From: Akkermansiaceae bacterium
GTDB lineage: Bacteria > Verrucomicrobiota > Verrucomicrobiia > Verrucomicrobiales > Akkermansiaceae
Length of the DNA stretch: 54,149 nt
NCBI GenBank assembly: GCA_031382045.1
Contig: JANMYL010000118.1
Span: forward strand, 1 to 54,149
Direction: 5' to 3'
Shown: piece after piece, positions 2,154-5,036 of the stretch
Layout of the letters: every line of letters begins with the position of its first letter
Position numbering within the stretch: the first letter of the stretch is position 1
Program-made: the position numbers and the translations under genes
Notes under the pieces: generated by a model
Told to the model about the DNA's origin: nothing
Database searches by the model: none
What the model saw: the letters and a program-made list of their open reading frames with translations, nothing else

Positions 2154-5036
2154 TTAGGATTCGAGCATGGATGCGAGCGACGCCTCGTCGAGGATGGGGA
2201 CTCCGAGTTTCTCGGCCTTGTCGCGCTTGGAGCCGCCGCCTTCGCCGGCGAGGACGTAGCTGGTTTTCGCGGAGACCGAGCCGCTGACTTTGCCGCCTTT
2301 GGATTCAATGAGTTCCTTCATTGCATCCCGGTCAAGGCTGAGGGTGCCGGTGATGACGAAGGTTTTTCCGGCGAGTGGCAGAGCGGATAGGTCGGCCTCG
2401 GCGGCGATGGGGAGGTAGTTGTCGGAAACTGGATCAATACCGAGTTCGGCGAAACGGTCGAGGGCGTGTTGGCCGGCCTCGGATTTGAAAAAGGTGGTGA
2501 TGGTCTCTGCCACGGCGGGGCCGACGTCGCCGGTGATGGTGTATTTTACGAGGAACTCGTTTTGCTTTTTAGCCGTGGCGCGGGTGTCGCGGAGGATTTC
2601 CGCTAGGATCGGCGAGTCGGGAATTTGGCCCAGCGTGCGGTGGAGGCGGGAGAGTTCCTTGGCGGCGGATTCACCGAGCTGCCGGATACCCATCGCATAG
2701 AGCCAGCGGTGGAGCGGCTTGGATTTGGCAGCTTCGAGGGCGGCGAGGACTTTGGCGGCGTTTTTCTCACCGAAACGGCGCGGGGATTCTTCGGTGCCGA
2801 GGTTGAGGTTGGCGAGGGTTTCCTCGTCGAGGCGGAAGAGGTCGAGCGGGGTTTGGCAATGGCTGTGGCGGACGAGCGCCTCGGCGACGATTTCTCCGAG
2901 GCCGTCGAGGTCGAGCGCCTTGCGGGAGGCGAAGTGGGTGATGTGGGTGACTGCCTGCGCCGGGCATTGGAAATTGGTGCAGCGCCACGCGACGAAGCCT
3001 TCTTCTTGGCTGATCGGGCCGCCGCAGGACGGGCATTTTCCTTGGACGCTGTCGTAGAGGGAATAGGGAACTGCGGCGTCCGCGTGGCGGATGACCTTGA
3101 CGATGGCTGGGATGATTTCACCGGCTTTTTCAACGAGCACGGTCGCGCCGAGGCGGATGTCCTTGCGGTCGATTTCGTCTTGGTTATGGAGGGTGGCGCG
3201 GGAGACGGTGGAGCCGGAAATGAGCACGGGCGTGAGCTCTGCGACGGGTGTGAGCACTCCGGTGCGGCCGACTTGGATGAGGATGTTGTGAAGCGTCGTT
3301 TCCTGCTGCTCCGGGAGGAATTTGTAAGCGGCTGCCCAGCGGGGGGCACGGGAGGTGAAGCCGAGTTGATCGCGGGCGGCGCGGTCGAGGACTTTGATGA
3401 CGGCCCCGTCGGTGCCGTAGTCGAGGGCGTGACGCTCTTGGTTGATGTGGGCGACGGCTGCAAGCACTTCGTCGAGATTGCGGGCGTTCAGAATTGGCTG
3501 GTTTTGGGGGATGCCGAGTGATCCCAACAGTTCGTGGAATTCATGCTCGGTTTCCAGGGGCGGGCCGTCGTAGGCACCGAGGCCGTGGGCGAGGAAGGCG
3601 AGTGGGCGCTTGGCGACTATTTTCGGGTCGAGCTGTTTGAGGGTGCCAGCGGCGGCGTTTCGGGGGTTAGCGAAGGTGGGCAGGCCAGCTTCGTCGCGCT
3701 CGGCGTTGAGTGCAGCGAAGGCCTCGTTGGGCATGAAAATCTCGCCGCGGACTTCGAGGAGGGCTGGGATGGGAGATTGGGATGCGGTGGTGGGGGCAAA
3801 TGCATCGCCTTGGTGAAGAACCTGAAGATCAATAGGAACGAGTTCGCCAGCTTTGGTTTTAATGAGATTACCAACGTGGGCATCGGCTATTTCGAGGCCA
3901 GACTCATCATTTTTCCAACGGTTGTGACCGTTTGAATGGTAGCCATTCGCCTCGAACCATGAAGCGACTTCGTCCGGTGTCGGGACATCACCAAAAACAA
4001 ACGGTTGGGAGGTGACGAGTGCTGGCCCACGCTCGGTTTCTAAAATTCCGTGGAGAATGATTTCATCGCCGAAAACTCGATTCGCGGCTTTCAGATTATT
4101 CAAATAGTCGATGGCTTCGCCTTGGGCGCCGAAGTGCGGAGGCAGGGTGAACTTGATGACCCGGTGCGAGCTTTGTAGATGAAAAACGGTATGTTCGGAC
4201 TGGCCGCCTAGCTGAGGGTAACTGGCTGCGAGATGTCCGAATTTTCTAGGATCGAGGAGTCGGTTTGACTCTCTGGCCCACGATACCACGGATTCGGCTT
4301 CCTGTCGGATCCGTTGCGAAACATTCTTTCCATCGCTTCTTCCGAGGTCAGCGAGAAGCCTTCGCGCCAAGCTTTGTCCCGCGCTTTGCGCAGGCGTTCG
4401 GCGAGAAGCTGTGTTTGATTCATGGAATTGGAGATAGGGCAGAATTTCGTCCAAGTCAACCGATGGAGTAGGCTCGGCCATGCCCTGAAATTCCAACTCC
4501 AGCGGGATACTGCGGATGGTGCGGACGTTGTGAGTCACGTCGTCTCCGGTCTGGCCGTCGCCGCGAGTGGCGGCGTAGGCGAGTTTTCCATCCCGGTAGA
4601 GTAGAGAAACGGCGACGCCGTCGATTTTGGGCTCGATGGTGACGGCGACGTCATCGCGTTTGAGATTTTTCTGGAGGCGGCGGTAGAAGTCGATGAGTTC
4701 TTGCTCGGGGCAGGTGGCTGCGGATTTCGCGACGGCCTCGGCGCTGAGTTCAAAGACGTCGTCGATGCTGAGCATAGAGACGGCGTGCTGGAGTTGTTGG
4801 AAGCCAGCGATGGGTGCGCCGCCGACGCGGAGGGTGGGGGAGTTTGAGTCGCGAAATTCTGGGTATGTGGCTTCGAGGGTTTCGAGTTCTCGGAAGAGCA
4901 GGTCGTATTCTGCGTCCGAGATTTCCGGCTGGGCTTGGTTGTAATAAAGCCGGTTGTGGTGCTCCAGCTGAGTCCGCAGTTCGCGGATTCGGTCCTGTGG
5001 GCGGGGGGCTTGGGCAAAAAGATCAGGCTGAACCAT
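2154..5036 (-). CDS. ligA: NAD-dependent DNA ligase with an in-frame kinase-like insertion
   Basis: EPKIDG adenylation motif, [29 protein letters not shown] fold, C4 zinc finger, HhH, BRCT (FVITGTL...GSVS). At 960 aa it is much longer than a typical LigA. Confidence 0.97.
4208..4423 (-). CDS. Candidate nested 71 aa ORF in the +1 frame of the ligA insertion
   Basis: ATG at 4423, 7 nt downstream of a -10-like hexamer. Charged helical N-terminus [35 protein letters not shown]. Confidence 0.4.
4431..4459 (-). promoter_or_regulatory. Internal sigma70-like promoter inside the ligA insertion
   Basis: Minus strand TTGACT(4459-4454)-17 nt-TATCTC(4436-4431)-7 nt-ATG. Confidence 0.45.

Follow-up and report, generated by a model that had tools for sequence, protein, structure and literature searches.

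A toxin-antitoxin-like two-gene cassette predicted within the DNA ligase gene ligA of an Akkermansiaceae bacterium

The NAD-dependent DNA ligase gene (ligA) of an Akkermansiaceae bacterium contains an in-frame insert that encodes a kinase domain in the ligase frame and a second, small gene in the +1 frame. We consider it probable, at roughly 60%, that this insert is a toxin-antitoxin-like two-gene cassette, in which a kinase tethered to the ligase is paired with a small, basic inhibitor protein translated from a leaderless internal mRNA. What is observed comprises the architecture, selection in two frames, a fixed promoter-like spacing, strict co-occurrence of the two genes, a single origin in ligA, a scattered presence among relatives, and swaps of the insert between alleles. 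The analysis started from contig JANMYL010000118.1 of assembly GCA_031382045.1 (positions 1 to 54,149), and this whole stretch of 54,149 nucleotides is referred to as the window. A preliminary description of the window, made from its letters alone, had recognized the kinase-like insert and read it as a mobile domain in an essential gene.

The host gene and its in-frame kinase domain

The ligA gene (2154..5036, minus strand) is a stop-free open reading frame of 960 aa, and its insert covers LigA residues 182-420 (3777..4493, minus strand), a loop of the adenylation domain. The 239 inserted residues agree with the roughly 240 that had been reported. In a comparison of 29 loci, 10 of them empty alleles, the same loop measures 252 aa in the window and 14-33 aa in insert-free relatives. 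The ends of the insert are freely variable in length across loci, and no terminal repeats were found around the window's insert. The host protein is otherwise an ordinary ligase: it scores 731 bits against a cut-off of 369 with the NCBIfam LigA equivalog model, and Pfam finds every LigA domain alongside the insert, as expected from the earlier remark that the ligase motifs are intact. The lower GC content of the insert, which had also been pointed out, amounts to 52.6% versus 60.2 and 63.2% in the flanks, with a GC3 of 50 versus 74 and 77, and insert GC3 is below that of the flank in 18/18 insert-bearing genomes. The window's own genome (G000; marker completeness 100%, 318 contigs) has a single LigA match and none to the ATP-dependent ligase family PF01068. 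LigA is the sole ligase found in this genome, and from that status we take the gene to be essential, as general knowledge would have it.

Both junctions of the insert, for which confirmation had been proposed, are spanned by contigs of three public runs from three studies (X3, X9 and X11), and no joint skipping the insert was seen in these contigs. X3 contigs match the window at 4252-4584 with 0 differences and at 3387-4020 with 3; one of the three runs could be the window's source sample. In addition, the insert is matched by 293 protein clusters of 528-1680 aa, and the LigA adenylation domain is present in 120/120 of the matches listed (the best 120 of the 293). The junction-spanning contigs and the 293 clusters together rule out a misassembly. 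Several of the listed LigA fusions are labelled Luteolibacter by their sources, and one match is named L. yonseiensis.

The ligA region shows further irregularities. Additional insertions or replacements of 20-100 aa lie near LigA residues 102-112 and 811-886 in P0012, P0034, P0039, P0044, L022 and L094, the last of which also has a second BRCT-like tail; the gene looks like a hot spot of recombination in this genus. Downstream of ligA, window positions 31-1997 hold a transposase fragment (HTH_Tnp_1), a DUF6036 nucleotidyltransferase and an unnamed ORF, possibly including a nucleotidyltransferase toxin-antitoxin-like pair.

Within the insert, Pfam assigns residues to the Kinase-PolyVal family (PF18762; E 1.2e-13, 51.8 bits versus a cut-off of 27), the family to which a likeness had been suspected. 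The kinase core comprises residues 245-403 (3828..4304, minus strand) and ends just past the DFG-equivalent; its landmarks are the Gly loop at 277-282, Lys295, the catalytic Asp385 and Asn390, and Asp403. The full motif set noticed at first sight turned out to be near-invariant: in an alignment of the window with 116 of the 120 listed matches (4 that lack an anchor motif were omitted), all of them selected for their similarity to the insert, G278, K295, H387 and N390 are kept in 117/117 proteins, E281, Q344 and D403 in 116/117, and D385 in 115/117. The structure search that had been suggested for residues ~182-420 led to the kinases of phage polyvalent proteins. An AlphaFold model of the kinase domain (pLDDT 90) matches protein kinases in the PDB weakly (best PknB, E 9e-4, TM 0.38) and polyvalent proteins in BFVD strongly (E 9e-13, TM 0.81) in Foldseek. 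By sequence, a profile of the kinase detected no relative of solved structure in the PDB. Traits of PF18762 can be recognized in the model: the C-terminal subdomain is absent and the domain stops at the strand after Asp403, whereas the family Glu before strand 2 and the Gln of the last N-lobe strand correspond to E281 and Q344, as placed by model secondary structure. The family is also described as having an insert between a conserved His and Asp; in the ligA inserts a His (H371, in 102/117) is located 14 residues before D385, but it is not kept in the NspC inserts described below. Distant members have Glu before a conserved Tyr; ligA inserts have Ala there in 78/117, so kinase activity would rest on Glu281. 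From the Gly loop to the DFG-equivalent the median dN/dS is 0.16 (111 pairs), with dS often at least 1, which indicates purifying selection on the kinase core. All catalytic motifs are intact in 62 of the 65 full inserts. In a model of full-length LigA both ligase and kinase fold (mean pLDDT 79, pTM 0.47), connected by low-confidence linkers at residues 185-192, 205-211 and 414-421.

A small gene in the +1 frame behind a promoter-like signal

The kinase had been described as a lone domain. The insert is instead a cassette of two genes: besides the kinase it encodes a hidden +1-frame ORF, and a promoter-like signal lies ahead of that ORF. This small overprinted ORF (4208..4423, minus strand) encodes a basic protein of 71 aa, a candidate kinase inhibitor, and its stop overlaps ligase-frame codons 276-277. 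Over the 55 codons before the Gly loop, dS is 0.12-0.27 in 7 of 8 pairs with the window, versus 1.0-1.5 in the kinase core, and we attribute the low values to the +1-frame ORF that lies there. Across 30 codons upstream of the NGS motif (59 distinct ligA segments, 607 pairs), pN/pS is 0.29 in the +1 frame, 1.28 in the ligase frame and 1.33 in the third frame; for NspC inserts it is 0.58 in the +1 frame versus 0.96 (22 pairs). Judged by these ratios, the small ORF is under purifying selection in its own frame, apart from the 15 codons that it has in common with the kinase's first helix, where selection is confounded. The third frame is closed in 46/59 segments. Openness of the +1 frame by itself is weak evidence, because 40-45% of control blocks of 45 codons are open as well (54/134 in the kinase core and 223/493 in the ligase).

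The small protein has a near-invariant Ser in its NGS motif and a median pI of 10. Its median charge is +4 (n=63) and that of the kinase core is -7 (n=67), and this pattern of a basic small protein and an acidic kinase is repeated in the NspC, large and solo forms of the cassette. No family was found for it in Pfam, NCBIfam, PADLOC or PHROGs, and the ESM Atlas gave no match either. A 53-row profile reached a best E of 0.026 against PDB sequences, a repeat artefact, and no Pfam family was matched by more than 3 of the 53 members. The searches gave no support for a resemblance to HipB/XRE helix-turn-helix proteins. Among 401 phylum-wide genomes, with 1 other congener sampled, the small-ORF profile matched only the window's genome. 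Four metatranscriptome runs yielded short contigs only and small word shares; read depth is higher over the small ORF but also in DNA runs, so this is not proof of expression or of a start.

A promoter-like signal precedes the small ORF. The -35-like hexamer TTGACT (4454..4459, minus strand) falls within ligase codons Val193-Asp194-Leu195 and the -10-like hexamer TATCTC (4431..4436, minus strand) within codons Tyr201-Leu202. In the window the -10 hexamer lies 17 nt after the -35 hexamer and 7 nt before the ATG of the small ORF, and this spacer of 17 and gap of 7 recur in 63/63 ligA inserts with a detectable start (63 of 68, as 5 are cut by contig ends or deleted). TTGA is found in 63/63 of these inserts, TTGAC in 62/63 and a -10 hexamer beginning with TA in 62/63, while the start codon is ATG in 61/63 and GTG in 2/63; the small ORF of G382 starts with GTG. 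By comparison, TTGAC encodes 511 of the 9506 X-Asp dipeptides in the genome (5.4%), and the full promoter-ATG signature has 3 occurrences in 3.3 Mb of genome. The signals explain the conservation of Asp194 and Tyr201 in the ligase frame. The final T of the -10 hexamer, kept in 40/63 inserts, is absent from the window's own copy, and a stock consensus scan, which this imperfect -10 fails, returned 0 promoters; the promoter scoring used here favoured consensus matches. A -35 and a -10 element separated by 17 nt with a start codon close behind is the geometry of a sigma70 promoter that produces a leaderless mRNA. We predict an internal sigma70-like promoter that would give a leaderless small-ORF mRNA starting at 4423. 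The cassette joins apparent in-frame read-through to an out-of-frame gene that lacks a ribosome-binding site.

How strictly are the two genes linked? The -35 motif and a start codon at the exact distance are present in 65/65 full ligA inserts, none of which (0/65) has an intact kinase without the small gene, a co-occurrence that among ligA alleles reflects shared descent. All three partial in-frame deletions (G013, G019 and L172) have lost parts of the kinase and kept the small gene, and two deletions without the small gene also lack the Gly loop and Lys of the kinase N-lobe. Linked genes, a small partner upstream, and its constant presence with an intact kinase make up the architecture of a type II toxin-antitoxin system.

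The full-length inserts L166 (G382) and L071 (G167) have altered catalytic residues and are candidates for a first decay step. Six LigA fragments (P0126, P0128, P0129, P0130, P0131 and P0135) are normal through the Gly loop, then share a diverged stretch over the next 20-50 residues and stop. A metagenome scan for truncated alleles with this odd tail returned 7 loci, one of them a new partial deletion and another unrelated, the rest being ordinary alleles.

The small gene may also be real without being an inhibitor. It could then encode a substrate, an activator or a nucleic-acid-binding regulator of the kinase, within a signalling or effector unit derived from phage polyvalent proteins. The high pI, the near-invariant Ser and the lack of a family assignment would suit such a role, and a protein this basic could bind DNA or RNA instead. 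However, an antidote fits better with a small gene that outlasts the kinase in 3/3 deletions and is never outlasted by it (0/65), and a putative separate promoter inside the gene suggests a need for constant supply. We regard a role other than inhibition as unlikely, albeit the strongest of the competing explanations.

Distribution, allele exchange and related cassettes

The insert is matched in 103/209 genomes of the genus and in 56/111 of the good-quality ones (E<=1e-25), its LigA context being checked in the fetched loci. In an order-wide draw, matches occurred in 5/17 genomes of a sister genus and in 0/46 of another. On a ligase tree of 27 rows, calculated with the insert removed and 2 fragments excluded, insert presence changes 9 times, no fewer than in shuffles, and a single clade of empty alleles is rejected (p-AU 2e-46). 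Patchy presence among close relatives, for which a check had been proposed, is thus supported; G004, for example, has a ligase 87% identical to the window's and no insert. These trees do not separate regain of the insert from loss, and the partial deletions indicate that loss does occur.

When 130 kinase domains are placed on one tree, all 68 ligA-insert rows fall into a single clade (support 99). This clade lies within a diversity of solo genes and of giant proteins bearing LPD3, LPD37 or MuF_C domains. This topology points to one origin of the ligA inserts, among the kinases of polyvalent proteins. Members of the ligA clade diverge to about 50% identity, and the insert is thus not recent. 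The preliminary view of a mobile domain that has colonized an essential gene is upheld by the patchy presence and by the other core genes hit, whereas its assumptions of recent arrival and of a solitary domain are not. Insert and ligase identities correlate (rho 0.62), which suggests that transmission is mostly vertical.

Vertical descent is interrupted by exchange. G032 and G001 have ligases 95% identical and inserts 60% identical; their DNA likeness is 88-98% up to the insert and 54-79% within it, with the break at the insert edges. Furthermore, eight ligases that group in a single clade (99/95) have inserts that fall at three different places in the insert tree, where one common insert clade is rejected (p-AU 7e-5). 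Both cases indicate that the insert has been swapped between ligase alleles. The ligA insert of G359, which belongs to another family, groups with a Luteolibacter allele and may lie on a misbinned contig. L086 (G156:C129), located at the end of a contig, is a second ligA-type insert, 59% identical to the other one in its genome. At the junctions, 7-nt pyrimidine-rich tandem repeats occur at the insert 3' end in L002, L004, L006, L007, L008, L010, L012 and L022 and also in the empty allele L018; a short GC hairpin is common to the empty allele G015 and the insert end of G034, and in the G016/G021 group the two ends of the insert share a short direct repeat. These repeats and the hairpin are possibly recombination scars.

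A patchy occurrence, with exchanges limited to the insert, looks like homing, as expected of a self-splicing or homing element, be it an intein, an intron or a hidden homing nuclease. Such an element is the least probable explanation of all: as first noted, intein signatures are lacking, with no intein or HINT match on LigA at E<=1 in Pfam, and no HINT or nuclease family was found in either frame. The small ORF is too short and on inspection has no HNH or LAGLIDADG motif, the insert ends vary in length, and selection on both protein frames makes a group I or II intron unlikely. Only slightly more credible, and still very doubtful, is that the insert is a tolerated, near-neutral relic of a prophage gene in slow loss. 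The many empty alleles, the partial deletions (G013, G019, L172), the altered catalytic residues in G382 and G167, and the six database proteins that break off shortly past the Gly loop are all what a relic would leave behind. A relic is nevertheless hard to reconcile with a kinase core dN/dS of 0.16 where dS is often at least 1, with allele swaps, with complete catalytic motifs in 62/65 inserts, and with a promoter-like signal in 65/65.

Related cassettes are found in other genes, and the proposal that homologous inserts might exist in further housekeeping genes has been borne out for NspC, UvrA (twice), an oxidoreductase and an OppD-type ATPase. The carboxynorspermidine decarboxylase NspC has an in-frame kinase at 17 loci, which form one clade (support 96), and this insert is present in 14/85 genomes of one genus. 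UvrA contains in-frame kinases at two different sites, from different kinase branches, and a Gfo/Idh/MocA oxidoreductase and an OppD-type ATPase each have a related kinase at the C-terminus; for UvrA, the oxidoreductase and OppD there are only one or two sequences apiece, and one of the UvrA loci contains an assembly gap. All of these cassettes outside ligA have a +1 ORF and a promoter-like signal. The small ORFs of NspC and of the nearer UvrA cassette align with that of ligA, and the distant ones resemble it in length and place only. A +1 ORF lies ahead of the kinase in 17/17 NspC, 13/18 large and 18/26 solo forms. Among 14 long ORFs, 7/10 strict promoter-ATG signatures stand directly before a kinase, covering 7/11 kinase domains. 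In 8 of 21 solo genes the kinase frame has an ATG 4-13 nt ahead of the small ORF's start codon, and in 3 an upstream start is lacking. One giant protein (L033:9559-12999) has at codon 483 a 127-codon +1 ORF with a promoter-like signal and no adjoining kinase. The kinase profile gave 2349 matches (E<=0.001) against 1.8 billion representatives, and in 39 of them that were scanned, mostly mid-sized and long, the extra domains were only those of LigA, NspC, the oxidoreductase or polyvalent proteins.

These hosts bear on the idea that the kinase has been domesticated by the cell to regulate or sense ligation, as a nick sensor or a guard of LigA. One old ligA origin, purifying selection and mostly vertical descent are compatible with domestication, as are the position of the insert beside the adenylation site and the two insertions in another DNA-repair gene, uvrA. 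However, 106/209 genomes of the genus have no match, G004 among them, the kinase hangs on low-confidence linkers, and related cassettes sit in a decarboxylase (NspC), an oxidoreductase and an ABC ATPase (OppD-type). The unrelated hosts disfavour a nick-sensing role, one of the readings in the preliminary description, and agree poorly with ligase-specific sensing; activation by ligase cleavage, which that description had also raised, found no support here. Domestication is in our judgement improbable.

Proposed mechanism and comparison with known systems

As a toxin-antitoxin-like cassette, the insert might work as follows. Ribosomes would read through ligA so that each ligase bears a flexibly tethered kinase, with no splicing, and the internal promoter would supply the inhibitor independently of ligA. 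By binding to the kinase, the small protein would keep it inactive. A shortage of inhibitor, caused by phage shut-off of host expression or by an empty allele replacing the cassette, would act as the trigger: the stable fusion protein would outlast the replaced cassette, and the freed kinase would phosphorylate a host target and stop growth. The cassette could spread by homologous recombination via the conserved ligA flanks, with no homing nuclease, and be lost either after inactivation of the kinase or by removal of both genes together. Abortive anti-phage defence and addiction-type selfishness both fit this scheme, and we weigh them about equally.

In a wider reading, which we hold tentatively and at slightly less than even odds, the insert would represent a new class of element, a non-splicing and nuclease-free toxin-antitoxin cassette that colonizes core genes. 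By fusing a phage kinase toxin to the host protein, with its promoter and its other-frame antidote overlaid on the same codons, it would turn an essential enzyme into a stable bearer of a latent toxin. Its separate captures, at least six in number (ligA, nspC, uvrA twice, the oxidoreductase and the OppD-type ATPase), would then amount to a recurring strategy, and the nested gene would be the long-missing self-protection of polyvalent kinases. In-frame passengers of essential genes, such as inteins and introns, persist by removing themselves. The ligA insert apparently remains part of the protein and persists together with a concealed second gene, and nested genes of this kind are invisible to standard annotation. 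An unstudied kinase family now becomes testable through its 173-aa domain, the candidate inhibitor of 71 aa and a transcription start predicted to the nucleotide, and the match named L. yonseiensis points to a cassette-bearing Luteolibacter in culture.

A literature search, in which subscription papers were scarcely covered, returned no paper on this ligase-kinase fusion or on its nested gene. Kinase-PolyVal was placed in prophage polyvalent proteins and compared with the T7 kinase (PMC5512222). The likeness to the domain as presented in the accessible part of that paper extends to the same family, the Verrucomicrobia lineage, the truncated C-lobe, and the family Glu and Gln, and the nearest relatives of the ligA insert are giant LPD3/LPD37/MuF_C proteins and solo genes. 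In contrast, the ligA-type cassette sits in core chromosomal genes; the words 'overlap', 'housekeeping' and 'promoter' are absent from the main text of PMC5512222, as far as available, and its three 'ligase' matches are RNA ligases.

With respect to function, HipBST would be the nearest system: a kinase toxin held by a small protein, going by the available portion of PMC10627512. A kinase-fold toxin with a small restraining protein is what HipBA and HipBST would share, by analogy, with the predicted ligA cassette. Unlike them, the ligA cassette is not a separate operon, since its kinase has become a segment of a host protein, with the partner overprinted on it, and no HipA, HipB or HipS/HipT match to either cassette protein was found in Pfam, PDB sequences or PADLOC. 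Engineered gene entanglement, of which relE within ilvA is an example (bioRxiv 10.1101/2023.02.27.530340), similarly places a conflict gene in another frame of a needed gene. According to the part of that preprint at hand, it is synthetic with the toxin out of frame, whereas the ligA cassette has its kinase in frame and its predicted antidote out of frame; the cassette would be a natural counterpart of such entanglement.

The nearest architecture in print, within the text available to us, is the ShiLan domain, a non-splicing in-frame insertion that hides an out-of-frame HNH nuclease (PMC11855218). As excerpted there, it resembles the ligA cassette in being in frame, apparently unspliced and patchy, with a second-frame gene for which a leaderless start is proposed. 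The two differ in what they encode and where, as the in-frame product of ShiLan is described as filler, its hidden gene as a homing nuclease and its host as a dispensable phage methylase, whereas in the ligA cassette both frames encode proteins under selection, no nuclease was found and the host is the sole ligase. The ligA cassette is a new variant of the non-splicing in-frame insertion and, if tests hold, also of kinase toxin-antitoxin systems.
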